From positions 44,702 through 108,701 of IMG/VR virus record IMGVR_UViG_2974569193_000001: a stretch of 64,000 bases of DNA; one strand, given 5' to 3'. Positions 1 to 44,957 of the stretch are shown one piece after another. A program made the translations under genes and the position numbers. Under the pieces are notes generated by a model. It had not been told where the DNA came from, made no database searches, and was given only the letters and a program-made list of their open reading frames with translations. This DNA is from a virus. Lineage: Duplodnaviria > Heunggongvirae > Uroviricota > Caudoviricetes. The first letter of the stretch is position 1; the number at the start of each line of letters is the position of its first letter.

Positions 1-2
1 AG

Positions 3-683
3 AACCGCATCCGCTACCGCCGCAACAACACGGCGGGGCATGCTCCCGCGACCCTGCTGCCCAACGAGATCGCGCTCAACGAGACTGACGGCCTGCTGTT
101 TACCCGCGATGGAGCCGGCGCGGTCAAGTCCACGCCGTTGGGCTTCCTGCACGGCGAAGGCCTGCCGCCGCCGGCCACGGACGATGGCAAGGTGCTGTCG
201 GGCGGCATGTCCTGGGAAACGCCGTTCACCCAGTACCTGCTTCCGGTGCGCAATGCTCCGCCGGCCGGCGCGCGCATCGCCCTGGCCGAGGGTGTGGTGG
301 GCTCCACGACCTTCACGCCGACGCTCGACGTCACCTACACCCGCCCGTTCTTCGTGGCCAAGACCATCGACATCCAGGCGCTGTCGATCGAGGTCGTGGG
401 CACGGCCGTCGCAACGGCCGAACTAGGCCTGATCGGTTGGTCGCTCGCCGGAACGCCGGGCGCGGCGATCGTCACTGGAACGGTGAGCACCAGCACGGCG
501 GGCGTCAAGTCCGCCGCTGGCACCGCCACGATCTTGACGCCGGGCTGGTACGCCGCCACCTTCAAGGTCACCGGCGCGGCGGGGGCTTCGTTCCGGGCTC
601 CCACTACCCCGACGGCGATCGCGCCGGACTTCACCACCGCGCCGGGCGCGCCCGCGCCGGTCATGGCGACCCTGGAGACCTAA
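3..683 (+). CDS. putative virion structural protein, 5'-truncated by window edge (paralogue 1 of 3)
   Basis: Frame of ORF 138-683 is open back to nt 3 (NRIRYRRNNTAGHAPATLLPNEIALNETDGLLF...). N-terminal LxxxE(I/L)xxNxxDxxL motif is shared with the next two ORFs. Confidence 0.7.
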   Translation, partial: NRIRYRRNNTAGHAPATLLPNEIALNETDGLLFTRDGAGAVKSTPLGFLHGEGLPPPATDDGKVLSGGMSWETPFTQYLLPVRNAPPAGARIALAEGVVGSTTFTPTLDVTYTRPFFVAKTIDIQALSIEVVGTAVATAELGLIGWSLAGTPGAAIVTGTVSTSTAGVKSAAGTATILTPGWYAATFKVTGAAGASFRAPTTPTAIAPDFTTAPGAPAPVMATLET

Positions 684-686
684 GGC

Positions 687-1355
687 ATGTCGACCGACAT
701 CACCATGCCGCCTGACACGACGGTGTTCGCTGACGTCAAGATCAATGGCGGCGCCGGCGCGCCCGTCGATCTGGCTGACGGCGAACTCTACATCGACGAG
801 GCGGGGCGCACGCTCTATGTCGAGACCGTGGTCGGCGTCCAACCGATCCCGCTCGACGTCGGCTATATCCCGCGCCGGCCCAGCGGTACGCCGCTCGACC
901 ACGTGGTCACCAAGACCCCCACCGGAGCCGAGTGGGGTCCGCTCCAGGGCGGCGCGGGCGGCTCGCCGTTCGATGCGGCAGAGTTCCGCGTGCCGGGCCT
1001 CGCGCCCACGGGCCTGGACACGGTCGTACTGCCGGGCGCGTCCGGTGGCATGGCTCTCTTCGAGATGCCGCTCCAGGACGTCCTCCTGAGCGTGCGTGTA
1101 CACGCCTCCGCCGGCGCCGGCGCGGTGACCCTGGGGCTCTACCCGTTCAACGGCTCCCTGGGCTCGGAAATCTTCGCCCAGACCCTGACGTTTACCGCGC
1201 CCGAGACCCAACTGGTGCCTGTCTCCCTGGCCCTGACGCCGGGGGTGTACGCCTGGGTCTGGACGGGGGCGTCCTCCGTGACCCTGGACGCGGTCAAGGG
1301 CTCCCTGCCCTGGGCGACGAGCGAGCAGGTCCATCCCGTGGCGATGAAGTTCTAA
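687..1355 (+). CDS. putative virion structural protein (paralogue 2)
   Basis: 222 aa, phage-like codon usage, motif LADGELYIDEAGRTLY. Stop overlaps next start (TAATG). Confidence 0.75.
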   Translation: MSTDITMPPDTTVFADVKINGGAGAPVDLADGELYIDEAGRTLYVETVVGVQPIPLDVGYIPRRPSGTPLDHVVTKTPTGAEWGPLQGGAGGSPFDAAEFRVPGLAPTGLDTVVLPGASGGMALFEMPLQDVLLSVRVHASAGAGAVTLGLYPFNGSLGSEIFAQTLTFTAPETQLVPVSLALTPGVYAWVWTGASSVTLDAVKGSLPWATSEQVHPVAMKF

Positions 1356-2131
1356 TGGCCATCCAGAACCCCCACTCCACCACGCCGGGCGTCATGCCCC
1401 ACCTGACGCCGGGCGAGATCGGCGTCAACAAGGCCGACGACATCCTCTGGTTCCGGTCCGAGGGCCGCCGCGTGCCGATCATCCTGAGCGATCTGGATCG
1501 GGCTCCGCCGCTCGACGGCCTGACGGGCGCGCCGCTGACCCTGGAAGGCGGACAGCCGATCTGGAACGCGCATCTGGCCCCGTCCTCCGTGGTCAATGGT
1601 CAGGTCAAGGTCGATCTGCCGCCGGCGACGGGCCTGCACGCCATGCCCAGCGTCCTGCTGCAAGGCCTGGGCGCCGATCGCGCCCTGGCGGCCAACGATC
1701 TGGACCTCTCGCCCTTCTACGTCCGGTCCGACTCCATCACCCTGACCCAGTTGGCGTTCAGCGTGCGCTCGGCCGGCGCGCCGGCGATGCGGGTGGGGAT
1801 CGTCGACAGCTTCGGTGTGGTCCAGGCCGACATTCTCGTCGCCGCGCCCGTGGTCGGGGCCAATGTGGTCAATCTCTCGCCGGTGCTGACGCTCCAGCGC
1901 GGGGTCTACCGCACGATCCTGGCGACCACCGGCGCGGTGACGATCGGCGTGGTCACGGGCGCGCGCATGGAGCAGGGCTGGGACATCATCGGGGACACGC
2001 CGTCCTTCATCCACGGCTACAGCGGCTCGAAGAACACCGGCGGCGGGATCGGCAGCTTGCCGGGCCTGACCGCGCGTCGCTCCGGTGTGCCGGGGCAGGA
2101 TCATGCGGTTCTGATGCGCTGGACGGCGTAG
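1355..2131 (+). CDS. putative virion structural protein (paralogue 3)
   Basis: ATG at 1355 inside listed ORF 932-2131; motif LTPGEIGVNKADDILWF; C-terminal beta-rich region resembles that of ORF 3-683. Confidence 0.75.
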   Translation: MAIQNPHSTTPGVMPHLTPGEIGVNKADDILWFRSEGRRVPIILSDLDRAPPLDGLTGAPLTLEGGQPIWNAHLAPSSVVNGQVKVDLPPATGLHAMPSVLLQGLGADRALAANDLDLSPFYVRSDSITLTQLAFSVRSAGAPAMRVGIVDSFGVVQADILVAAPVVGANVVNLSPVLTLQRGVYRTILATTGAVTIGVVTGARMEQGWDIIGDTPSFIHGYSGSKNTGGGIGSLPGLTARRSGVPGQDHAVLMRWTA

Positions 2132-2233
2132 CGGGGAGAACCTGATGGGGCTTTGTATCGCCGGAGGGCGAGGGACGGGTCGCTCCCCGGCGGCCCACCC
2201 GCTTCCTATAGACCGGCTCGCCTCGGCCCGCAA

Positions 2234-2248
2234 GACGTGAATCTTGAC
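2234..2248 (+). promoter_or_regulatory. GTCGTGAATCTTGAC-family promoter element (variant GACGTGAATCTTGAC)
   Basis: 14/15 match to the recurrent motif; upstream of ORF 2303 and the first tRNAs. Confidence 0.65.
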
Positions 2249-2302
2249 ATGGTGGAAGATCGAGGTTAACCTACGCGCTAATCTGGAGTTTCGAGCGCCA
2301 CC

Positions 2303-2572
2303 ATGGCCGAGCTTGTCCGCATCTATCACCCCGAGACGAACGAGCCGTTCGACGTGATTCCGTCGACCGCCGAACGTCTGCGCCTGGGTGATGGGCACGA
2401 CGGGCTGGTCTGGCTCTCGCAGCCCTTCGAGCGCGTCGCCGTCGAAGCCGCGCCGGAAGCCCCCAAGGGGCGAGGTCGTAAGCGCGTCAGCGCGATCGTC
2501 GAGGCGGAAGACGCCGAATCCGACGGGTCGTGGCGTGATGCGCCGACCGAGGAAGACCTCGAAGCCGCGTAA
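2303..2572 (+). CDS. hypothetical protein, acidic C-terminus
   Basis: 89 aa ORF, GGAG SD-like sequence upstream, downstream of the promoter motif. Confidence 0.75.
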   Translation: MAELVRIYHPETNEPFDVIPSTAERLRLGDGHDGLVWLSQPFERVAVEAAPEAPKGRGRKRVSAIVEAEDAESDGSWRDAPTEEDLEAA

Positions 2573-2616
2573 GGCGCTTCGACTTCCACTCTGCTGAAAT
2601 TCGGTCTCAGTCCCAT

Positions 2617-2692
2617 GTCGGTCTAGCTCATGGGGTAGAGCGGCGGTCTCCAAAACCGCGCGTGGCAGGTTCGAGTCCTGCGTCCGGCGCCA
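2617..2692 (+). tRNA. tRNA-Trp(CCA)
   Basis: Anticodon arm GCGGT-CTCCAAA-ACCGC; T arm GCAGG-TTCGAGT-CCTGC; encoded CCA. Confidence 0.9.
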
Positions 2693-2696
2693 TTTC

Positions 2697-2771
2697 GCAT
2701 CCGTAGTATATAGGTGATTACAGCGCGTTGCCAACGCGTAGAGTCGGGTTCGAGTCCCGACGGATGCTCCA
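2697..2771 (+). tRNA. tRNA-Gly(GCC)
   Basis: Loop TTGCCAA; acceptor GCATCCG/CGGATGC; TCCA end. Confidence 0.9.
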
Positions 2772-2777
2772 ATCCAT

Positions 2778-2851
2778 GCGGGTATAGCTCAAAGGGAGAG
2801 CTACTGCCTTCCAAGCAGAAGATGCGAGTTCGAGCCTCGCTATCCGCTCCA
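2778..2851 (+). tRNA. tRNA-Gly(TCC)
   Basis: Loop CTTCCAA; canonical D and T arms; TCCA end. Confidence 0.92.
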
Positions 2852-2855
2852 AACT

Positions 2856-2951
2856 CGTGGTGAGGTGAGAACGCCCTCCTCATGCACCGCTTCGGCGGTA
2901 AAGTAGGCTCCGGCCGAAGAGATGCGGGAACAGGGGACCCCGCCACCACGA
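2856..2951 (+). ncRNA. candidate multibranch structured RNA
   Basis: Closing stem TCGTGGTG/CACCACGA; inner ACCGC-TTCG-GCGGT and GCGGG/CCCGC hairpins; no ORF. Confidence 0.45.
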
Positions 2952-2955
2952 ACGA

Positions 2956-3099
2956 AGTGCGCCCCAGGTGCGCCTCTGACCGAGAAAGCCCGCTGGCCGT
3001 GGGTGAAGCGTAGGGTCAAGCGTCTGGGTCCCCGTCCTCCAGGACCGGCGAAGGCCATATGCGCCGAATTCCTGGTCAGGATCGCATGAGGGGAGCGCT
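2956..3099 (+). ncRNA. candidate long-hairpin RNA
   Basis: AGTGC..CCCC..GTGCG..CTGACC pairs with GGTCAG..CGCAT..GGGG..GCGCT; contains TAGGGTCAAGCGTC, which recurs at 57373. Confidence 0.45.
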
Positions 3100-3159
3100 G
3101 GCGCCGGCCCAGCAGGGGAGGGTTAAAAGCCCAGCCGGCATTTTTCTTCAACAACAAGC

Positions 3160-3186
3160 TTGACAGCCGTCGAGTTTCGTGAGAGC
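3160..3186 (+). promoter_or_regulatory. sigma70-type promoter A
   Basis: TTGACA-N13-GTGAGAGC, same layout as the promoter at 3776. Confidence 0.6.
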
Positions 3187-3198
3187 CTCTTCAACATT

Positions 3199-3261
3199 AT
3201 GACGCACCTCCTGACCCGTTACGAACGCGAGGCCACCGGCCTCGATACCACCACCGCCTAA
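3199..3261 (+). CDS. candidate leader peptide A (MTHLLTRYEREATGLDTTTA)
   Basis: 20-codon ORF just after promoter A; overlaps alternative hairpins (3228-3244 vs 3238-3282); precedes tRNA-Glu and tRNA-Asp. Confidence 0.45.
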   Translation: MTHLLTRYEREATGLDTTTA

Positions 3262-3293
3262 AAGCGGTTTTGGTCCGAGGCCTCTTGTCATGT

Positions 3294-3371
3294 GGCCCGG
3301 TCGTCTAGCGGTTTGCAGGATACCTGACTTTCAATCAGGTGAGCGGAGTTCGAGTCTCCGTCGGGCTTCCA
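3294..3371 (+). tRNA. tRNA-Glu(TTC)
   Basis: CCTGA-CTTTCAA-TCAGG; T arm CGGAG/CTCCG; CCA. Confidence 0.92.
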
Positions 3372-3392
3372 TCCCCAACTCCTTCTGAGCTT

Positions 3393-3467
3393 GGTGCGTT
3401 CGTATATCGGTTAATACTCCCGCCTGTCGAGCGGAGAAGAGGGGTTCGACTCCCCTACGCACCGCCA
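3393..3467 (+). tRNA. tRNA-Asp(GTC)
   Basis: Loop CTGTCGA; acceptor GGTGCGT/ACGCACC; G73; CCA. Confidence 0.92.
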
Positions 3468-3534
3468 GCTTCCCTCGTATCAATCCAGGTTCCCAGCGCC
3501 GGCTTTTCCGCGCGCCTGGATGCACGAGGCTTCC

Positions 3535-3756
3535 ATGTTCTTCGATACCTCCTCGCAGTCGAGCGCCGCGCTCCTGCGTCACGTCTCCACCCAATCTCCG
3601 TATGCGGAAGCGGCTCGCACCGAGTTGCTGTCCCGAGGCCTCGTTCCGCTCCTGACGCGGTTCAACGGCTGGCGCCTCGCCCCGAGCGTGCCGTTTCCGC
3701 AGCACCTCATCCCGCGCCCCGATCCGCTCGCGAAGTTCACGTGGCGGGCGGGATGA
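3535..3756 (+). CDS. small hypothetical protein
   Basis: Within listed ORF 3520-3756; GAGG precedes ATG 3535; 73 aa. Confidence 0.5.
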   Translation: MFFDTSSQSSAALLRHVSTQSPYAEAARTELLSRGLVPLLTRFNGWRLAPSVPFPQHLIPRPDPLAKFTWRAG

Positions 3757-3775
3757 AAAATATTCACCACGACAC

Positions 3776-3802
3776 TTGACATCCGTTGGGAGTTGTGAGA
3801 GC
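3776..3802 (+). promoter_or_regulatory. sigma70-type promoter B
   Basis: TTGACA-N13-GTGAGAGC. Confidence 0.6.
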
Positions 3803-3897
3803 TTATGGACTGTCACGGATCACGACACTCCTCGGAGTGCAAAAGCGTGATCCTTCGTTATTCACGGCCGCCAGCGGGTGGCCAGTCGAGAGTTGTC

Positions 3898-4035
3898 ATG
3901 TTCGCCTTGTCGCATCTCAGCCTGAGCACGAAAGCCGCCTCCCCGGCGTCGCTTTCGCTTGCCCTGCTGGCGACGGCCACGAAGCCCTCGACCAAGCCGA
4001 CCACCTCGGCCTCGCACTCGACGGAAACCCTCTAG
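3898..4035 (+). CDS. attenuator leader peptide B, 45 aa (MFALSHLSLSTKAASPASLSLALLATATKPSTKPTTSASHSTETL)
   Basis: GAGAG SD-like sequence upstream. 42 of 45 residues are A/L/S/H/T/K/P, the amino acids of the 14 downstream tRNAs. Confidence 0.75.
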   Translation: MFALSHLSLSTKAASPASLSLALLATATKPSTKPTTSASHSTETL

Positions 4036-4138
4036 GGTTTTTCGTCTCGGGTGCAGGCCTTGGAGCCGCACCCGCTACCTACATCCTGTAGACCTAGCGC
4101 AAGGCGGCTCCTCACCAGGGAGACCGCCTTTTCTTTTT
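4008..4138 (+). terminator. attenuator B: alternative hairpins plus intrinsic terminator (4101-4138)
   Basis: Terminator AAGGCGGCTCC..GGAGACCGCCTT+TTCTTTTT. Antiterminator GGAGCCGC(4062-69):GCGGCTCC(4104-11). Sequestering hairpin CGGGTGC(4048-54):GCACCCG(4067-73). Leader 4008-4026 can pair with 4040-4059. Confidence 0.75.
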
Positions 4139-4150
4139 CGCGTTGATCAT

Positions 4151-4226
4151 CGGGGTGTAGCTCAGTCGGTAGAGCGCTCGGTTCGGGACCGAGAGGCCGT
4201 GGGTTCAAGTCCCGCCACCCAGACCA
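4151..4226 (+). tRNA. tRNA-Pro(CGG)
   Basis: CTCGG-TTCGGGA-CCGAG; canonical D arm. Confidence 0.92.
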
Positions 4227-4233
4227 ACGCCAT

Positions 4234-4310
4234 CGGGATGTAGCTCAGTTTGGGAGAGCGCGCGGCTGGGGGCCGCGAGGCCGCAGGTTCAAGTCCTGCC
4301 ACCCCGACCA
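4234..4310 (+). tRNA. tRNA-Pro(GGG)
   Basis: CGCGG-CTGGGGG-CCGCG; canonical arms. Confidence 0.92.
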
Positions 4311-4315
4311 ACAAC

Positions 4316-4388
4316 GCTGTTGCGCGTGGTTTCGCGCCCACCCCTTGGTATGGGGTGGTAGAAGGTTCAATTCCTTCCAGCAGCACCA
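4316..4388 (+). tRNA. tRNA-Thr(GGT), atypical (D arm abuts acceptor stem)
   Basis: Acceptor GCTGTTG/CAGCAGC; CACCCC-TTGGTAT-GGGGTG; T arm GAAGG-TTCAATT-CCTTC; ACCA. Confidence 0.75.
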
Positions 4389-4393
4389 GCAAC

Positions 4394-4463
4394 GCCGATG
4401 CCTCTGGGAGGACGCGCCTTTCGTAAGGGTGCGAGGTGGGTTCAATCCCCACTTTCGGCTCCA
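4394..4463 (+). tRNA. tRNA-Thr(CGT), atypical (shrunken D arm)
   Basis: Thr-like acceptor start GCCGAT; loop TTCGTAA; D arm CCTC-TGG-GAGG; TCCA; 70 nt. Confidence 0.7.
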
Positions 4464-4504
4464 GCATAGCGAGATCAAGGAGAAATCGCAAGCAGACAGA
4501 ACAT

Positions 4505-4587
4505 GGATCGGGAACGTAAAGCTAGGCCGGGCCAGCAGTGGGCTCTTAATCCACGCGTAAGGGGTTCGACTCCCTCCCGATTCTCCA
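4505..4587 (+). tRNA. tRNA-Lys(CTT), atypical (long 8/9 connector and D arm)
   Basis: GTGGG-CTCTTAA-TCCAC; acceptor GGATCGG/CCGATTC; TCCA. Confidence 0.75.
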
Positions 4588-4592
4588 ACAAT

Positions 4593-4682
4593 GCACAAGT
4601 GACCCGAGCGGCGAAGGGCGTCGACTTTTAATCGACTAGGCGTCCAGCCTCACCGAGGGTTCGAGTCCCTCCTTGTGCTCCA
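4593..4682 (+). tRNA. tRNA-Lys(TTT) with long variable arm (Tyr-like body)
   Basis: GTCGA-CTTTTAA-TCGAC; V arm AGGC-GTCCA-GCCT; D region CCCGAGCGGCGAAGGG; perfect acceptor stem; TCCA. Confidence 0.85.
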
Positions 4683-4685
4683 TGT

Positions 4686-4772
4686 GCGAATGTGGCGGAA
4701 CTGGTAGACGCGCCGGCCTCAGGTGCCGGTACCCTTCGGGGCGTGTGGGTTCGAGTCCCACCTTTCGTACCA
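4686..4772 (+). tRNA. tRNA-Leu(CAG)
   Basis: CCGGC-CTCAGGT-GCCGG; class II body; ACCA. Confidence 0.92.
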
Positions 4773-4779
4773 ACGACAT

Positions 4780-4867
4780 GCCTTGCTGGCGGAAGTGGTA
4801 GACGCACTGTTCTCAAAAAGCAGGCCGGGCGACCGGGCTCTGGGTTCGATCCCCAGGTGAGGCACCA
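4780..4867 (+). tRNA. tRNA-Leu(CAA)
   Basis: CTGTT-CTCAAAA-AGCAG; class II body; ACCA. Confidence 0.92.
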
Positions 4868-4874
4868 AGACTGA

Positions 4875-4962
4875 TGCGAAGTGGCGGAAACTGGTAGACG
4901 CACCGGCATGAGAGGCCGGCGCCCTTCGGGGCGTGAGGGTTCGAGTCCCTTCTTCGCGACCA
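4875..4962 (+). tRNA. tRNA-Leu(GAG)
   Basis: CCGGC-ATGAGAG-GCCGG; class II body; ACCA. Confidence 0.9.
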
Positions 4963-4964
4963 AT

Positions 4965-5030
4965 GTCCCGATCGGGAAGATTCCAGGCGGCGCGGCGCGC
5001 GCGACACCGGAATCGTCCCGATCGGGAAGA
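4965..5030. repeat. direct repeat of 16 nt GTCCCGATCGGGAAGA (palindromic core TCCCGATCGGGA)
   Basis: Copies at 4965-4980 and 5015-5030, flanking a GC-rich spacer. Confidence 0.8.
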
Positions 5031-5042
5031 CGACGAGATTAT

Positions 5043-5113
5043 GCTGATCGCCGCTGGGCGGGGAGCGGGTTGTGTCCCCGCTAGGCACGGTTCGATCCCG
5101 TGGGTCAGTACCA
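5043..5113 (+). tRNA. tRNA-His(GTG), no G-1, A73, small D arm
   Basis: AGCGGG-TTGTGTC-CCCGCT; T arm CACGG/CCGTG; acceptor GCTGATC/GGTCAGT; ACCA. Confidence 0.75.
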
Positions 5114-5118
5114 GATAC

Positions 5119-5189
5119 GGGGTATGCGCAGGGCGCAGCCATCCTTTGCAAGGACGGCGGGGTGGGTTCGAGTCCCACATACTCCACCA
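5119..5189 (+). tRNA. tRNA-Ala(TGC)
   Basis: Loop TTTGCAA; G3-U70 pair; ACCA. Confidence 0.85.
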
Positions 5190-5193
5190 ACAT

Positions 5194-5283
5194 GGAAGGT
5201 CAACCGGACAGGCGCGCCGGGACTGCCTCGAAAGCAGATCGCACTCTCCGGGGTGTGGGGATCGAGACCTCGGCCTTCCTCCA
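5194..5283 (+). tRNA. tRNA-Ser(CGA)
   Basis: Loop CTCGAAA; long V arm; atypical D and T loops. Confidence 0.8.
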
Positions 5284-5287
5284 ACAT

Positions 5288-5377
5288 GGTGAGCGAACGG
5301 GACAGGCGTGCCCGGTCCGCCTGGAAAGCGCGACGCACTCTCCGGGGTGTGGGATTCGAGTTCTCCGCTCACCGCCA
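5288..5377 (+). tRNA. tRNA-Ser(GGA)
   Basis: Loop CTGGAAA; long V arm shared with the neighbouring Ser tRNAs; GCCA. Confidence 0.8.
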
Positions 5378-5381
5378 ACAT

Positions 5382-5471
5382 GGTAGGCGAACCGGACAGG
5401 CGTGCCGGCGCCGTTTGCTAAACGAGCGGCACTCTCCGGGGTGTGGGATTCAAGCTCTCCGCCTACCGCCA
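5382..5471 (+). tRNA. tRNA-Ser(GCT)
   Basis: Loop TTGCTAA; long V arm; GCCA. Confidence 0.8.
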
Positions 5472-5479
5472 TTTTGATG

Positions 5480-5508
5480 TTGACGCCGGCCCCTGCCGAT
5501 GTCATACG
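5480..5508 (+). promoter_or_regulatory. putative promoter
   Basis: TTGACG-N17-CATACG. Confidence 0.5.
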
Positions 5509-5516
5509 TCACGACA

Positions 5517-5727
5517 GAGCGAACGCCCTTGGCCGGGTTGGTGGATGTGCCGGTTGCATCACGCCCCGTCGAGCCCTAGTAGCTCTTGAGTGGAGTTTTC
5601 CGCCTCCCTCCCTAACAAGGAGGCGGACCCCAACATCGCGATCCAGTGATCGTCGGCGACGGGCGCCGTTAGAGCCCCCTTGCGCGCGGAAACGCTGCGG
5701 AGGGGATCGTCCCGACCACATTCGCTC
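5517..5727 (+). ncRNA. candidate structured RNA (~210 nt)
   Basis: Closing stem GAGCGAA/TTCGCTC; inner stems CCCGTCG/CGACGGG and TCCGCCTCC/GGAGGCGGA; GAAA-capped hairpin; follows a promoter; no credible ORF. Confidence 0.5.
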
Positions 5728-5763
5728 GCCGGCAAAAATCTTCGCCGGCGTTAACTTTTCTTC

Positions 5764-5792
5764 TTGACCTTTGAAAGGTCCTGGTGTAGTTT
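5764..5792 (+). promoter_or_regulatory. sigma70-type promoter C
   Basis: TTGACC-N17-TAGTTT; predicted start ~5799-5800, so the leader ORF would be leaderless. Confidence 0.7.
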
Positions 5793-5799
5793 CCCCGTC

Positions 5800-5895
5800 A
5801 TGAGCAAGTCGTACCGCCAATTCGTGCAGATTCAGGTCGTCCGGAATTTCCGGGCGGGCCGTTCGCGCATGGATGATGGCGGGACCTTTATCTAG
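5800..5895 (+). CDS. attenuator leader peptide C, 31 aa (MSKSYRQFVQIQVVRNFRAGRSRMDDGGTFI)
   Basis: Core YRQFVQIQVVRNFR uses exactly the seven amino acids of the 12 downstream tRNAs. Confidence 0.8.
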   Translation: MSKSYRQFVQIQVVRNFRAGRSRMDDGGTFI

Positions 5896-5960
5896 GTCCA
5901 GACACCTCAACCCAATTCGCGAAAGGCCCGCCTGGACACCCAGGCGGGCCTTTTTCTTTT
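5849..5960 (+). terminator. attenuator C: antiterminator 5849-5867:5918-5936 and intrinsic terminator 5922-5960
   Basis: Terminator AAAGGCCCGCCTGG-ACAC-CCAGGCGGGCCTTT+TTCTTTT. TCCGGGCGGGCCGTTCGCG pairs with CGCGAAAGGCCCGCCTGGA (18 bp with one G-U, plus one mismatch). Confidence 0.85.
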
Positions 5961-6016
5961 CCGTTTCGCTGATCCGAGGAGATCGCAGATGAACAACGGG
6001 GGCTAGTCCTCCACAT

Positions 6017-6101
6017 GGATGCTTAAAGCTGGAGGGCTCCAGCCGGGGGCTGTAAACCCCCTCTCTTCGGAGGAGTGGTTCGATCCCACAAGCATCCACC
6101 A
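6017..6101 (+). tRNA. tRNA-Tyr(GTA), over-long D stem
   Basis: GGGG-CTGTAAA-CCCC; V arm with TTCG loop; ACCA. Confidence 0.85.
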
Positions 6102-6102
6102 T

Positions 6103-6177
6103 GGTCATGTAGCTGAGACAGATTAGCGCCGGCGTGAAATCCCGGAGACGAGGATGCGAGCACCTCCTAGACCACCA
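6103..6177 (+). tRNA. tRNA-Phe(GAA), degenerate T arm and acceptor stem
   Basis: Loop GTGAAAT; D arm GCT..AGC; non-canonical T loop; ACCA. Confidence 0.6.
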
Positions 6178-6182
6178 ACAAC

Positions 6183-6258
6183 GCCCGATGAGCCAGATGG
6201 GAAGGCACCGCTTTGACATGGCGGCATTGAGAAGGTTCGATTCCTTCATCAGGCACCA
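6183..6258 (+). tRNA. tRNA-Val(GAC)
   Basis: Loop TTGACAT; T arm GAAGG/CCTTC; ACCA. Confidence 0.88.
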
Positions 6259-6263
6259 ACCAC

Positions 6264-6339
6264 GCAAGTGTAGCTCAGTTGGTAGAGCAGCGGACCGATA
6301 ATCCGCCCGTCCCTGGTTCGAGTCCAGGCATTTGCACCA
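6264..6339 (+). tRNA. tRNA-Ile(GAT), C33
   Basis: GCGGA-CCGATAA-TCCGC; canonical arms. Confidence 0.88.
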
Positions 6340-6346
6340 TTTCTGA

Positions 6347-6421
6347 TGTGGCATAGCTCAGGGGTAGAGCGTCCGCTTGATAAGCGGGAGGTCGTGGGTT
6401 CGAAACCCCCTGCCACTACCA
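6347..6421 (+). tRNA. tRNA-Ile(GAT)
   Basis: Loop TTGATAA; canonical D arm; ACCA. Confidence 0.88.
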
Positions 6422-6452
6422 ATTCCAGGCCGGCGGAGAGAGCCGGTCCTGT

Positions 6453-6526
6453 AGGCGATTAGCTCAATGGTAGAGCGGGGGTGCCACAAACCTCAGGCGT
6501 AGGTTCGATTCCTACATCGCCCACCA
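6453..6526 (+). tRNA. tRNA-Val(CAC), C33
   Basis: GGGGT-GCCACAA-ACCTC; canonical D and T arms. Confidence 0.8.
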
Positions 6527-6531
6527 ATTGT

Positions 6532-6605
6532 TGAGGGTTCGTCTAATGGTAGGACGCCTGGGTCTGGTCCAGGTAATCTAGGTTCGAGTCCTAGCTCCTC
6601 ATCCA
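6532..6605 (+). tRNA. tRNA-Gln(CTG)
   Basis: CCTGG-GTCTGGT-CCAGG; U1-A72. Confidence 0.9.
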
Positions 6606-6611
6606 AGTTGT

Positions 6612-6685
6612 TCTCGGGTGGTCTAATGGTAGGACGGCTGGTTTTGGTCCAGCAGGTTGGGGTTCGATTCCTTGGCCGAGAGCCA
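6612..6685 (+). tRNA. tRNA-Gln(TTG)
   Basis: GCTGG-TTTTGGT-CCAGC; U1-A72; G73. Confidence 0.9.
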
Positions 6686-6702
6686 ACTGCTTTTGAGTTT
6701 AT

Positions 6703-6777
6703 TCCAGTCAATGCACAAGGTGTGCAGCGGCACTGTTAATGCCTGTGAGCCCGGTTCGATTCCGGGGTCTGGAGCCA
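6703..6777 (+). tRNA. tRNA-Asn(GTT)
   Basis: GGCA-CTGTTAA-TGCC; G73; CCA. Confidence 0.9.
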
Positions 6778-6802
6778 ACACGCCGGCCTAGGCCGGTCAT
6801 GC

Positions 6803-6885
6803 GCCCTGGTAACCGAGGGGGATTACGAATCCCTTAGTCGTAGCAGGAGTTGAAAAGGGTGGTTCGAATCCACTCCAGGGTGCCA
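6803..6885 (+). tRNA. tRNA-Arg(ACG)-like, D arm absent, ~22-nt extra region
   Basis: Acceptor GCCCTGG/CCAGGGT; GGGGA-TTACGAA-TCCCT; T arm GGTGG-TTCGAAT-CCACT; GCCA. Confidence 0.6.
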
Positions 6886-6892
6886 AATCTAT

Positions 6893-6975
6893 AGCGCGCA
6901 GGCCGAGCAGGATCATCGTCAGGCGTCGCCCTCCGAAGGCGAAGAGGCCCGGTTCGAGTCCGGGGCGCGCTGCCA
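6893..6975 (+). tRNA. tRNA-Arg(CCG), enlarged D loop
   Basis: TCGCC-CTCCGAA-GGCGA; perfect acceptor stem; GCCA. Confidence 0.85.
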
Positions 6976-6978
6976 CAT

Positions 6979-7056
6979 GCGCGGGTAGCTCAATGGAGCC
7001 AGAGCAGCCGTCTTCTACACGGTGGGTTGGGGGTTCGAGTCCCTCCCCGCGTGCCA
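6979..7056 (+). tRNA. tRNA-Arg(TCT)
   Basis: CCGT-CTTCTAC-ACGG; canonical arms; GCCA. Confidence 0.9.
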
Positions 7057-7393
7057 AACTTGACGGGCGATGCCGAATCGCTCAACGTCGACCCTGGCTC
7101 TCGGTGGGCCACGATTGCACGTCGCCGGTGCCCTGGCCGTACACCCAGGGAGCAGCCCGGCGGCGTTCCAACACGGTTTCTGGACGATCTTCGAACGCGG
7201 CTTGCCGTGGAGGGGTGCTGGATGGGGCCGAGGTAGGAGGAACCATCGAGCATCTCCTCATCCTGGACTGGGCCTCCTGGGGGCTCCTCCGGGTCAAACA
7301 GGGCCTGACCCGACCCCGGAGATGCGCCGACCTTGATCACCCAGGATCGCTGGGTCGGTGGAAAGGGTCTGAAATTTTTCTGGCTCTTATGTG

Positions 7394-7521
7394 TTGACAC
7401 GCATTTCAGAGCCGGCTACAACCCTCCTCGTAGAGCGGCGCTGGGGCCAGGAGGCCCCGTCGTTGAGCCTCTGCGTTGTCGTCAGAAACGGCCCGCCGGC
7501 TTCCCGCCGCGCGGGCCGTTT
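7394..7521 (+). ncRNA. promoter plus candidate ~95-nt sRNA ending in a terminator-like hairpin
   Basis: TTGACA-N17-TACAAC (7394-7422); hairpin GGGGCC/GGCCCC; stem AAACGGCCCGC/GCGGGCCGTTT (7486-7521). Confidence 0.5.
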
Positions 7522-7562
7522 CGTCATGGGCGTCATGCGACCTTGAGTCCACCGTGGGTAGT

Positions 7563-7577
7563 GTCGTGAATCTTGAC
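7563..7577 (+). promoter_or_regulatory. GTCGTGAATCTTGAC promoter element
   Basis: Exact motif, upstream of ORF 7647. Confidence 0.7.
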
Positions 7578-7646
7578 TTTCGACCACCTTTCCGGTAGCT
7601 TCCCCTTCATCACCAACGCTCATAAGTCGGGGACTAGAGAGCCGCA

Positions 7647-8045
7647 ATGTCGCAAGACCACACCGGCTCCGCAACGCAGGGCCAAGAACACATCTTCCGT
7701 AAGCTGGATGAGCTTGGCGCAATGCACATGCGTACCCGCGAGGACATGGCCGAGGTCAAGGAGAAGGTGAAGACCATCGCCTCCTCTCAGGAGCGCTTTG
7801 AGCGCGACGTCTGGCGTGAAATGGATATTCGCCACACCGAGACCAAGCAGGCCCTGGCCGATATCAAGGATCACACCAACGAGCGGATCAGCGAGATCGA
7901 GTCCAAGGTGAACACCATCCGCGAGGAGCGGATCGCCGAAAAAGCCCAATGGCGCGGCCCCGAAAAGGTCATCGCCGCCATCGTCGCCCTGGCGGGCGGC
8001 GTCACGGCGATCGGCGTGCTCTGGAGCATCTTCAAGCCGCACTAA
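7647..8045 (+). CDS. hypothetical protein, coiled coil plus C-terminal TM segment
   Basis: 132 aa; VIAAIVALAGGVTAIGVLWSIF. Confidence 0.8.
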   Translation: MSQDHTGSATQGQEHIFRKLDELGAMHMRTREDMAEVKEKVKTIASSQERFERDVWREMDIRHTETKQALADIKDHTNERISEIESKVNTIREERIAEKAQWRGPEKVIAAIVALAGGVTAIGVLWSIFKPH

Positions 8046-8148
8046 TCCTACAGTCAAGCTTGTTCCCCTGCGGCCAGAAGTCGCGCTTCTTGACACCCCT
8101 GGTCGGCCCGAGCTAACCATATGCCATCTGTTCCTGGGGAGTTCCTAG

Positions 8149-8370
8149 ATGGCTGCTGCGCTTACCCTCGTCTCGCGTGAGACGGATTATTCGACCACCA
8201 CGGAAATCGATCCGGACGCGGCGCATCAGCGCCTCATCCTGGTCCTGAACACCGCCGCAGAAGCGGGCCTTGGTGACATGACGTTGGAAGTCAAAGAGGA
8301 GATCGAGGCCCTGCTCAAGCAGGCGTCTATCGAACTCTCGAATTGCCGGATCGTGGGGGGAGTTCCTTAA
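8149..8370 (+). CDS. hypothetical protein
   Basis: 73 aa; GGGAG SD. Confidence 0.7.
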   Translation: MAAALTLVSRETDYSTTTEIDPDAAHQRLILVLNTAAEAGLGDMTLEVKEEIEALLKQASIELSNCRIVGGVP

Positions 8371-8392
8371 TCGCCATCCCAGAGGGAGCGAC

Positions 8393-9259
8393 GTGTCCGA
8401 GTCTTCCGAATTCAACCCGCTCGACGAAACCCAGTTCCCTCCTCGCCTCACCAAGGCGGCTGCGCGGCAAGCGCGGCGCCTGGAGAAAAGCCAGAAAAAG
8501 GACCCCACGGCGAACAAGCCGAACTACAAGGCGCTCGAAGCCAAGACTGAACGCCAGAAGCGCTACATCCAGGCGCTGAAGGCCGGCGAGAGCGCCATCG
8601 CTATCGGTGGGGCCGGCACGGGAAAGACCTACATCCCGTCCCGGCTCTTCGCCAAGAAGCTGATCGAAGGCAAGACCGAACGCCTGATCATCGCCCGCGT
8701 TACCGCCTCGCGGGCCAAACACGCCCTGGGCTTCCTGCCCGGCAAGCTCGAAGCCAAGCTGGCCCCCTGGCTGGTCCCGGTGATCGAGGGCGTCAAGGCG
8801 GAAATGAACGCCCAGACCTACACGCAGTTGCAAGAGGCCGGCAAGATCGAGTTCGCCTCCTTCGAGCACATGCGTGGCCGGACCTTCGGCGAGTGCTGCG
8901 TCCTCCTGGACGAGGCGCAGAACGCCGACTACAAGGACCTGAAGATGGTCCTGACCCGCTGGGGTGAAAACGCCCAGTACGCGGTCACCGGCGACGTCGA
9001 CCAGATCGACGTGGACGACTCCGGGCTGGACACGGTCATCGACATCGTCGAGGCCAACGACATCCCCATCCACGTCATTGAGTTCACCGACGAGGACGTC
9101 GTGCGCTCGCCCATGGCTAAGGCCTGGGTCAAGGCCTTCTCCGCCCATGAGGGCAAGGACGGCCGCCCCCGGCGCTTCCACCGCCCGGCTGTCAGGAATC
9201 TTGACGCTTTGCCGGTGTTCATCGATAATGGCCATGTCACGAAATCCGTGGCATCGTGA
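8393..9259 (+). CDS. phoH: PhoH-family ATPase
   Basis: GGAGTGKT Walker A, HMRGRTF, LLDEAQN, TGDVDQID, VVRS. Confidence 0.95.
   Translation: MSESSEFNPLDETQFPPRLTKAAARQARRLEKSQKKDPTANKPNYKALEAKTERQKRYIQALKAGESAIAIGGAGTGKTYIPSRLFAKKLIEGKTERLIIARVTASRAKHALGFLPGKLEAKLAPWLVPVIEGVKAEMNAQTYTQLQEAGKIEFASFEHMRGRTFGECCVLLDEAQNADYKDLKMVLTRWGENAQYAVTGDVDQIDVDDSGLDTVIDIVEANDIPIHVIEFTDEDVVRSPMAKAWVKAFSAHEGKDGRPRRFHRPAVRNLDALPVFIDNGHVTKSVAS
9191..9205 (+). promoter_or_regulatory. promoter motif variant GTCAGGAATCTTGAC inside the phoH 3' end
   Basis: 13/15 match, ahead of the head-tail operon. Confidence 0.55.
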
Positions 9260-43622: not shown

Positions 43623-44957
43623 CTAGCGAAGGACGGTGAGGGTTTCGGCCGCGCGGGTGACGGCCGTGTAGAGCCACTTGTCCTCGTCGGCGCGGAAGCA
43701 GCCGGACTCGTCGATCACGACGACGTCCTTCCACTGCGAGCCCTGCGAGGCGTGGCAGGTGATGGCGTAGGCCCAGTCGGCGACGATCGAGTTCTTCAGC
43801 GCCCGCCACGCCTTCTGCTCGGGCGCGGTGTAGCCCTTGGGCGTGCGCGAGAAGTGCTCCTCGAACATGCCCTGGAACATCATCTTGTCGTGGTGCTCGA
43901 CTCCGCTCTCCTCCTGGAACGAGCCCATGAAGGTGGCGTCGCCTTTGGTGAAGCTGACGTCCTTGATCGAGGTGACCTCGGTGCCGTTGGTCAGGTCCGG
44001 GTTGTCGCGGACGTTCTTGCGGATCATCAGCGGCTCACCCTTCTGGGGGCCGACGCGCTCGCCGGGATATTCGACGAAGCCGAACTCCGAGCGCAGTTGC
44101 TGGTTGGTGTTCCAGCGCGTCTTGTTGCGGCCGACGATGAACTGCGGGCGGTCCTCGAAATCGAAGACCTCCTCGTACTCCTGGCGCCGCATCACCTTCA
44201 CGCCGCTGCCGTAGTCGCGGTACGGCAGGTCCTTGCCTTCGCGCGCCAGGGTCGACAGGTGGATGATCGGATTGTCCTTGGCCTGACGGTGGATTTCCGA
44301 CAGGAAGAAGTCAGGGTCGTTCGCCAGCAGGCCTGCGGAGTCCTCGACCGGCGGAAGCTGACCGGGATCGCCCATTGCGAAGATCGGCACGCCGAATTCC
44401 ATCAGGTCGTCGGTCATGCGCCGGCCGACCATGGAGGCTTCGTCGACCACGATCAGGCTGGCCAGTTGGATGGCGCTGTCGGGGTTGAGTTGGAAGTTGA
44501 TCTTGTCCTCGCGGTACGCGGCGCTGAGTTCGGCCTCCAGGCGCGTGATCAGCTTGCGTTGCGTGAAGATGTGCTGATCCTTGTCGGGATCGCCGCCGTC
44601 CATGGCCAAGATGTACATCGCCTCCGAGAGCGCTTCCCGGTGGTTTTCCAGGTCGGTTTCCAGTTGCGAGATCGGCGCGGGCTTGGCGCGATAGATGGAC
44701 GAGTGGATCGTGCCGGCGTTGGTGTTCGGGTAGCCCTGGGCCTTGAGCTTGGTGCGCATGACCTTGGCGGCCTTGCCCGTCGGGGCGACGAAGGCCACGG
44801 TCTCGGGCGCGATGCCGAGGGTGTCGAGGATGAAGGGTAGGATGGTCGACTTGCCCGAGCCGGCGAAGCCGGTCATGGTCGTCAGAGGCTGGCCGTCCTT
44901 GATCTTCTCAACGACGACCTTGCGGCACTTGTCCTGTTGATCGCTGAGAGTGGTCAT
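43623..44957 (-). CDS. RecD/Dda-like SF1 helicase
   Basis: GFAGSGKST, APTGKAA, TIHS, VDEASMV, GDPGQLPPV, YAITCHASQGSQW, LYTAVTRA. Confidence 0.92.
   Translation of the reverse strand: MTTLSDQQDKCRKVVVEKIKDGQPLTTMTGFAGSGKSTILPFILDTLGIAPETVAFVAPTGKAAKVMRTKLKAQGYPNTNAGTIHSSIYRAKPAPISQLETDLENHREALSEAMYILAMDGGDPDKDQHIFTQRKLITRLEAELSAAYREDKINFQLNPDSAIQLASLIVVDEASMVGRRMTDDLMEFGVPIFAMGDPGQLPPVEDSAGLLANDPDFFLSEIHRQAKDNPIIHLSTLAREGKDLPYRDYGSGVKVMRRQEYEEVFDFEDRPQFIVGRNKTRWNTNQQLRSEFGFVEYPGERVGPQKGEPLMIRKNVRDNPDLTNGTEVTSIKDVSFTKGDATFMGSFQEESGVEHHDKMMFQGMFEEHFSRTPKGYTAPEQKAWRALKNSIVADWAYAITCHASQGSQWKDVVVIDESGCFRADEDKWLYTAVTRAAETLTVLR

Follow-up and report, generated by a model that had tools for sequence, protein, structure and literature searches.

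A short open reading frame restricted to seven amino acids and a conserved alternative-helix terminator precede 14 tRNA genes in a Caulobacter phage: a candidate multivalent attenuator

The window analysed here is a stretch of 64,000 nucleotides (nt), positions 44,702 to 108,701 of IMG/VR virus record IMGVR_UViG_2974569193_000001, from the 220,934-bp genome of a Caulobacter phage of the phiCbK group. It contains the tRNA island common to these phages (window 2600-7060). Within this island, a short open reading frame (ORF) that we refer to as leader B lies ahead of an intrinsic terminator and a block of 14 tRNA genes. In the leader/tRNA region the window is 94-98% identical to CcrRogue and its kin and 83-93% identical to phiCbK, Swift, Karma, Magneto and the Ccr phages. 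The leader B unit has the following features.

3776-3802, plus strand: putative promoter of the unit (TTGACA, 13 nt, GTGAGAGC)
3817-3853, plus strand: hairpin 1 of the 5' untranslated region (5'-UTR), then a U-rich run; predicted from the full-length fold, highly conserved
3866-3883, plus strand: predicted 5'-UTR hairpin 2, just 5' of the ribosome-binding region
3888-3892, plus strand: weak Shine-Dalgarno-like GAGAG, 5 nt before the ATG, identical in 10 phages; putative role
3898-4035, plus strand: leader B ORF, 45 codons plus TAG, with homologous ORFs in four lineages
3904-4023, plus strand: putative sensing stretch of 40 codons (residues 3-42), A/L/S/H/T/K/P only
4008-4030, plus strand: segment 1, the last leader codons, predicted by folding to pair with segment 2
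4035-4059, plus strand: segment 2, predicted by folding to pair with segment 1 or segment 3
4062-4074, plus strand: segment 3, the 3' half of predicted hairpin 4048-4074; 4062-4069 is the putative antiterminator strand
4073-4099, plus strand: small hairpin predicted inside the antiterminator
4101-4138, plus strand: intrinsic terminator, comprising segments 4 and 5 (hairpin 4101-4130) and a U tract; -19.5 kcal/mol
4151-5471, plus strand: 14 putatively regulated tRNA genes called by ARAGORN (two Pro, two Thr, two Lys, three Leu, one His, one Ala, three Ser)

The composition of leader B is highly restricted. Residues 3-42 are drawn exclusively from Ala, Leu, Ser, His, Thr, Lys and Pro, and all 40 consecutive codons therefore specify amino acids of the downstream tRNAs. 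The initial annotation had pointed to this run and to its agreement with the tRNA set; conceptual translation of the ORF, a search for such runs in all six frames of the genome and the ARAGORN set at 4151-5471 bear out both claims. The run is the longest of its kind in the 220,934-bp genome, with a runner-up of 23 residues. Because the seven amino acids have a frequency of 0.433 in the phage's long ORFs, the probability of 40 out of 40 is ~3e-15. Even when Ser, Thr, Ala and Pro are set aside, 13 of the 13 remaining residues are Leu, His or Lys, where 20% would be expected (p ~8e-10). The chance that a random set of seven of the 20 amino acids equals that of the cluster is 1/77,520.

The 14 tRNA genes carry exactly these seven amino acids, with anticodons CGG and GGG (Pro), GGT and CGT (Thr), CTT and TTT (Lys), CAG, CAA and GAG (Leu), GTG (His), TGC (Ala), and CGA, GGA and GCT (Ser). 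ARAGORN called nine of the 14 at its default setting and needed a relaxed threshold for the remaining five, among them Thr(CGT) and all three Ser genes. Lys(CTT), Ser(CGA) and Ser(GGA) are annotated independently in sister phage records.

At the level of codons the agreement is looser. The initial annotation had also proposed that leader codons match the anticodons of the block, and each pair that it listed is real. However, the match adds little beyond codon usage (p = 0.07 given the peptide in this phage, 0.01-0.35 in relatives). The downstream tRNAs decode 97-100% of phage codons for six of the seven amino acids, and this explains why the match barely exceeds expectation. For Ala, GCC accounts for six of the eight leader codons, and the UGC anticodon can read it by extended wobble only. 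For Lys, AAA makes up 5% of phage codons and occurs in leaders only where the phage's cluster has tRNA-Lys(UUU).

The ORF has the hallmarks of a coding frame. Its GC content by codon position is 0.46, 0.63 and 0.89, and over the leaders GC at the third position (GC3) is 0.80-0.93 versus 0.46-0.49 at position 1. The ATG at 3898 is invariant among the ten phiCbK-type phages, and in the Brevundimonas phages Bajun and Gurke the sequences AGGA and AAGGA lie ~10 nt ahead of GTG starts. An in-frame ATG at 3805 was considered as the start and rejected; it is missing from most sister phages, and the transcript is predicted to start there or further downstream. An antisense ORF at 3858-4004, which shares the wobble positions, was likewise rejected, since it carries two stops in Gurke whereas the sense ORF is intact everywhere.

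The terminator sits between the promoter and the sole genes that this promoter can serve. The first tRNA gene (4151) begins 12 nt past the U tract of the terminator, too close to it for a separate promoter to fit. To reach tRNA-Pro, polymerase initiating from the promoter at 3776 must therefore cross the terminator. Both promoter boxes are identical in 10 phiCbK-type phages. The 64-kb window holds only two exact copies of the motif, the second at 3160-3186 ahead of a further leader, leader A. The terminator itself is annotated as rho-independent in the phiCbK, Swift and Karma records, and it is identical in 10 phages except for its loop.

We compared leader B across related phages. The ORF is present in ten phiCbK-type phages, with an in-frame insertion of 9 nt in Ccr10, and homologues stand ahead of the same tRNA block in four lineages of the Dolichocephalovirinae: phiCbK/Rogue, Colossus/CcrPW, Bajun and Gurke. 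Homologues have 39 codons in Colossus and CcrPW, 42 in Bajun and 45 in Gurke (the last two with GTG starts), and over the lineages the ORF spans 39-48 codons. The clusters of all these phages carry the same seven amino acids (Thr in Gurke was undetected at the threshold used).

Leaders of different lineages share 30-45% identity, and the residues at which they differ remain mostly within the set, so composition is conserved. As a mutational baseline, a single-base nonsynonymous change in these codons keeps the residue in the set in 48% of cases. For the five pairs with a phiCbK- or Colossus-type phage as a member, 85-92% of the differing residues are in the set (p = 1e-7 to 1e-11); the figure for the Bajun-Gurke pair is 76% (p = 7e-4). 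Of 15 variant residues in the phiCbK group, 13 are in the set (p = 0.002), and in this group nonsynonymous changes in the ORF exceed synonymous ones. That differing residues stay in the set despite such low identity indicates that selection acts on the alphabet more than on residue order.

The RNA downstream of the ORF can adopt two mutually exclusive arrangements. Folding recovered all four pairings that the initial annotation had named (1:2, 2:3, 3:4 and the terminator), each where it had placed them. The strand at 4062-4069 is a perfect 8-nt complement of 4104-4111 in the 5' arm of the terminator, and the duplex has an energy of -18.8 kcal/mol versus -12.8 +/- 2.3 in dinucleotide shuffles (p = 0.013). 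The unit of ~330 nt from promoter to terminator also folds better than shuffled sequences (z = -4.8). Among sister phages, compensatory changes are seen in the inner stem at 4073-4099 (CTACA/TGTAG vs CAACA/TGTTG) and on both arms of 5'-UTR hairpin 2 in Swift, Ccr5 and Magneto.

Region 4036-4150 is almost invariant in the ten close relatives, more conserved than the ORF itself. A test of the switch must therefore rest on Bajun and Gurke, where the helices have different sequences. Because the register of the cross-lineage MAFFT alignment was too rough for covariation to be counted by column, helices were compared lineage by lineage. In the window, Bajun and Gurke alike, a segment 33-37 nt past the stop codon complements the 5' arm of the terminator in the same phage (p = 0.013 in the window, 0.003 in Bajun and 0.004 in Gurke, from dinucleotide shuffles), and the arm sequences differ among the three. 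The antiterminator pairing that the initial annotation had proposed is thus conserved while its sequence is not. Bajun and Gurke also have a hairpin-plus-U-tract terminator and a two-state architecture of nearly equal energies. In all three lineages the stop codon lies in the loop of a long helix formed by the last leader codons with the next 25 nt, which accounts for the C-terminal Glu/Asp-Thr codons, conserved and out of the set. In Colossus and CcrPW (L014 6385-6499 and L015 2241-2354), the leader and the 1:2 and 2:3 alternatives are kept.

We used stepwise folding in place of equilibrium folding, an approach that partly presupposes the order of events. With the leader end free, 1:2 was predicted to form (-30 to -33 kcal/mol) and then 3:4, leaving the terminator open. 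With the leader end covered, the 2:3 hairpin was predicted (-14 to -23 kcal/mol) and then the terminator. Both outcomes held in three lineages, and the two end states lay 0.8-5.5 kcal/mol apart, as those of a switch would. In silico, then, the antiterminator excludes the terminator in a manner that depends on ribosome position. The unconstrained minimum-energy fold is the antiterminated form in phiCbK, Bajun and Gurke. These calculations reproduce the classical 1:2/2:3/3:4 relay suggested in the initial annotation, and they revise it: five segments rather than four, a kinetic switch, and read-through of untranslated RNA.

Two general searches were also made. A simple terminator scan gave no call for leader B, whether in the window or in Bajun, Gurke or Colossus, and is uninformative because it also missed the terminator that sister records annotate, presumably owing to a bulge in the stem. 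Rfam cmscan of window 1-9000 (E <= 1) gave no match at 3776-4150, be it to His_leader, Thr_leader, Leu_leader, Trp_leader or another leader family or to a T-box; its matches were tRNAs, skipping-rope RNA and others at chance level only.

Leader B is one of three such leaders in the array. Leader C (5800-5895), a 31-codon ORF, contains 14 consecutive residues from Tyr, Arg, Gln, Phe, Val, Ile and Asn, and precedes a strong terminator (5921-5954) followed by Phe, Val, Ile, Gln, Asn and Arg tRNAs. It is probably leaderless, a TTGACC ... TAGTTT promoter-like motif ending 7 nt before its ATG. In phiCbK, BL57, RBC57, Colossus and Bajun, the residue order of leader C is reshuffled and its alphabet retained. 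In Colossus, where tRNA-Asn is annotated in the cluster together with two Arg(ACG) genes, leader C has three Asn codons and CGC/CGA Arg codons. The conserved Ala/Thr-Gly-Arg-Ser codons after the sensing run are a near-copy of the 3' arm of the terminator, which points to an antiterminator strand and a trp-like 1:2 / 2:3 / 3:4 layout. Leader A (3199-3261, 20 codons; unit 3160-3293) shares its promoter motif with leader B. All four lineages have retained its Glu-x-Glu and Asp, and it lies directly before tRNA-Glu and tRNA-Asp. Three leaders with three alphabets, each that of its own cluster, are hard to explain except by codon sensing.

Taken together, these data lead us to favour, with some reservation, the view that leader B gates the phage tRNA operon as a multivalent, ribosome-mediated transcription attenuator. 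The tRNAs would probably be made only when ribosomes decode their codons slowly. In this model, the promoter at 3776 would give rise to a leader RNA of ~330 nt that either ends at 4101-4138 or extends into the 14 tRNA genes, and a ribosome on the 45-codon ORF would race RNA polymerase. If the 40 codons are decoded fast, the ribosome would reach segment 1 in time, the 2:3 hairpin would form, the terminator would close and no tRNA would be made. If an Ala, Leu, Ser, His, Thr, Lys or Pro codon is decoded slowly, 1:2 would pair, segment 3 would take 4104-4111 and the tRNAs would be transcribed. An unhindered ribosome would melt 1:2, and a delay at any of the ~35 codons 5' of segment 1 would suffice for 1:2 and then 3:4 to form. 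The stall position would thus not be tied to one segment, which would allow a long sensing stretch to sample 14 tRNA species; the trp-like leader C would sense over ~14 codons only. Leader B would in effect sum the decoding speed of the tRNAs it controls, producing negative feedback of charged-tRNA supply on tRNA transcription. With five segments, an odd number, untranslated RNA is predicted to read through.

The composition, the match to the tRNA set, the position of the terminator and the conservation of the alternative helices can be read directly from the genomes. We infer that the ORF is translated, that the promoter and start site are those given, that ribosomes stall and that regulation follows, and this counts against the attenuator model. 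Several findings also weigh against it. Residue 7 is Asn or Tyr, out of the set, in most phiCbK-type phages, and the Gurke leader has six out-of-set residues. His and Lys have 2-3 leader codons each, which makes sensitivity to those tRNAs uncertain; the match of individual codons does not reach significance, and the ORF has a weak Shine-Dalgarno-like sequence. The Rfam tRNA model recognised five of the 14 block genes and missed nine, indicating that many tRNAs of the cluster are non-canonical, with putative functions. In Colossus and CcrPW, no canonical hairpin-plus-U-tract terminator was found before tRNA-Pro. The 5' arm of leader A's terminator-like hairpin lies within the ORF, and a translating ribosome may therefore suppress that terminator, a logic possibly opposite to that of leader B. 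Finally, in equilibrium folding, placing a ribosome at the stop codon raised terminator probability modestly in the phiCbK group (0.44-0.87 to 0.96-0.98), and the terminator stayed a minority form in Bajun (0.06 to 0.01) and Gurke (0.27 to 0.43). As equilibrium ensembles separate the states so weakly, the switch must be kinetic.

We considered three other explanations. In the first, leader B is translated and controls the terminator, possibly with Rho, but it gauges how much translation the cell can sustain overall or how tightly ribosome and polymerase are coupled, and has no specificity for the 14 tRNAs. The predicted read-through of untranslated RNA fits this idea, since any global slowing of ribosomes would then switch leader B on. 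The ORF is also C-rich (41% C, 25% G), like Rho entry sites, and the Colossus-type phages, which are without an intrinsic terminator, leave room for a Rho-type mechanism. However, a general gauge has no need of a restricted alphabet, the three leaders each have a different alphabet matched to their cluster, and leader C is not C-rich. We regard this explanation as unlikely.

A second possibility, also improbable in our judgement, is that the product of the ORF is a true small protein of low complexity with a function in trans. In that case the hairpin and U tract would be a leaky terminator or an element for processing or stability of the tRNA precursor, and nothing would be sensed. Every sister phage record lists the ORF as a hypothetical protein, and it belongs to a protein family, PHROG 12742, of unknown function. 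Its N-terminal motif L-S-H-x-L/S-S-L is kept across lineages, more than composition alone requires, and leader peptides that act in trans are known, e.g. peTrpL (PMC7298713). These points are offset by the divergence of residue order to 30-45% identity with the seven-letter alphabet retained, and by the excess of nonsynonymous changes within the phiCbK group. A trans-acting protein also leaves unexplained why leaders A and C, unrelated to leader B in sequence, spell the amino acids of their own clusters, and why bistable helices are conserved.

It is very unlikely that the ~330-nt unit is an independent structured small RNA gene with an incidental ORF and tRNAs transcribed from elsewhere: its strong folding, the higher conservation 3' of the ORF and the precedent of attenuator-derived small RNAs such as rnTrpL (PMC6614838) would suit such a gene, whereas three-base periodicity with a GC3 of 0.89, the conserved start codon, the in-frame indels (+9 nt in Ccr10, 39-48 codons across lineages), the lack of promoter space between the U tract and tRNA-Pro, the match of composition to the tRNA set and the absence of an Rfam family match all speak against it.

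The proposed attenuator resembles several known systems. Like leader B, hisL, the enterobacterial his attenuator, combines a short ORF rich in regulatory codons with a relay of mutually exclusive hairpins and an intrinsic terminator. In hisL the position of the ribosome selects the relay, and charged tRNA rather than free amino acid is sensed. However, hisL responds to one amino acid and controls biosynthetic enzymes, whereas leader B would respond to seven amino acids through 14 tRNAs and control tRNA genes. An untranslated leader terminates in trp and his, in contrast to the read-through predicted for the five-segment leader B. The his leader has been used as a translation-speed meter (PMC4046918).

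Mixed codons for several amino acids, as in leader B, are found in thrL (Thr and Ile) and in ilvL of ilvGMEDA (Leu, Val and Ile). Shortage of any one of these amino acids relieves termination. Both leaders cover two or three amino acids and serve enzymes of the same pathway, unlike leader B with its seven amino acids and tRNA targets, and there is no sequence or Rfam similarity. An ilvBNC attenuator with three hairpins has also been described (PMC11857589).

The pheM leader of pheST, like leader B, attenuates a component of the translation apparatus with charged-tRNA feedback. Its product is a protein enzyme, phenylalanyl-tRNA synthetase, and one amino acid is involved; the products of leader B would be the very RNAs that decode the leader. 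T-box riboswitches also attenuate transcription of translation-related genes according to the charging of a specific tRNA. However, they bind uncharged tRNA by means of a specifier loop and T-box motif and have no ORF, whereas leader B would sense through its ORF.

To our knowledge, all described leader-peptide attenuators target genes for amino-acid biosynthesis, transport or aminoacyl-tRNA synthetases. Leader B departs from them in its target, which is 14 tRNA genes rather than protein-coding genes. In full-text literature searches, no account of tRNA genes under leader-peptide attenuation came up. The leader ORF receives no comment in the phiCbK genome paper, where the tRNAs and the predicted terminators are listed (PMC3556154), and the phiCbK RNA-seq paper does not discuss it (PMC10688885).

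If the model is correct, leader B would be the first case of an attenuator that senses its own product, with decoding speed feeding directly into tRNA transcription, and the reach of multivalent attenuation, so far two or three amino acids, would grow to seven. The usual view is that phage tRNA genes give fixed support to codon usage or stand in for tRNAs that host defences cleave, and we know of little about the control of their expression. We suggest tentatively, as a doubtful but possible extension, that the leaders are closed-loop sensors of tRNA supply, one per cluster. Leader B would then be a kinetic integrator: slow decoding at any of 14 steps, for instance once a host anticodon nuclease has cut tRNA-Lys or another tRNA, would induce replacement phage tRNAs, and the arrays would serve inducible counter-defence and homeostasis rather than act as constitutive codon-usage helpers. 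Because ribosome profiling, mapping of transcript start sites, reporters and genetics exist for Caulobacter crescentus, the host of the phiCbK group, the idea is directly testable.

Other features of the region were noted. The U-rich run after 5'-UTR hairpin 1 (window 3817-3862) is TTCGTTATT in the window and TTCGTTTTT in Rogue. Together, hairpin and run have the shape of a terminator or pause site, ahead of transcription of the leader B ORF. Upstream, phiCbK, Ccr32, Ccr34 and S2L carry an insertion of ~600 bp (window 3757-3811 vs L002 1579-2280) that separates the preceding ORF from the leader B transcript and contains the reverse-strand gene gp082. The same insertion, at 636 letters, is present in RNA contigs from phiCbK infection. 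Those RNA libraries cover and bridge the whole region, as assembled contigs that do not show ends, strand or levels.

Within the tRNA block, the His and Ala tRNAs are 71 nt long with reduced D arms, and Lys(UUU) at 4593-4682 has a long variable arm resembling that of a class II tRNA. The largest gap inside the block is an 80-nt spacer between tRNA-Leu(GAG) and tRNA-His (window 4963-5042). In this spacer a direct repeat of ~15 nt (GTCCCGATCGGGAAG) flanks a GC-rich palindrome, and it could hold an internal signal.

In the cluster behind leader C, a tRNA-Tyr(GTA)-like gene at window 6017-6101 was seen by eye; ARAGORN and Rfam make no call there. It has a 7-bp acceptor stem, a CTGTAAA anticodon loop, a long variable arm, a TTCGATC T loop and CCA, and Bajun has an annotated tRNA-Tyr at the matching place. 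The gene at 6703-6777 is called Ile(AAT) by ARAGORN on the whole window and Asn(GTT) when taken alone; Asn agrees with the tRNA-Asn annotated there in Colossus. Near the start of the island, directly 3' of tRNA-Gly(TCC), window 2855-2951 matches skipping-rope RNA (Rfam RF02924) at 48.6 bits, over the gathering score.

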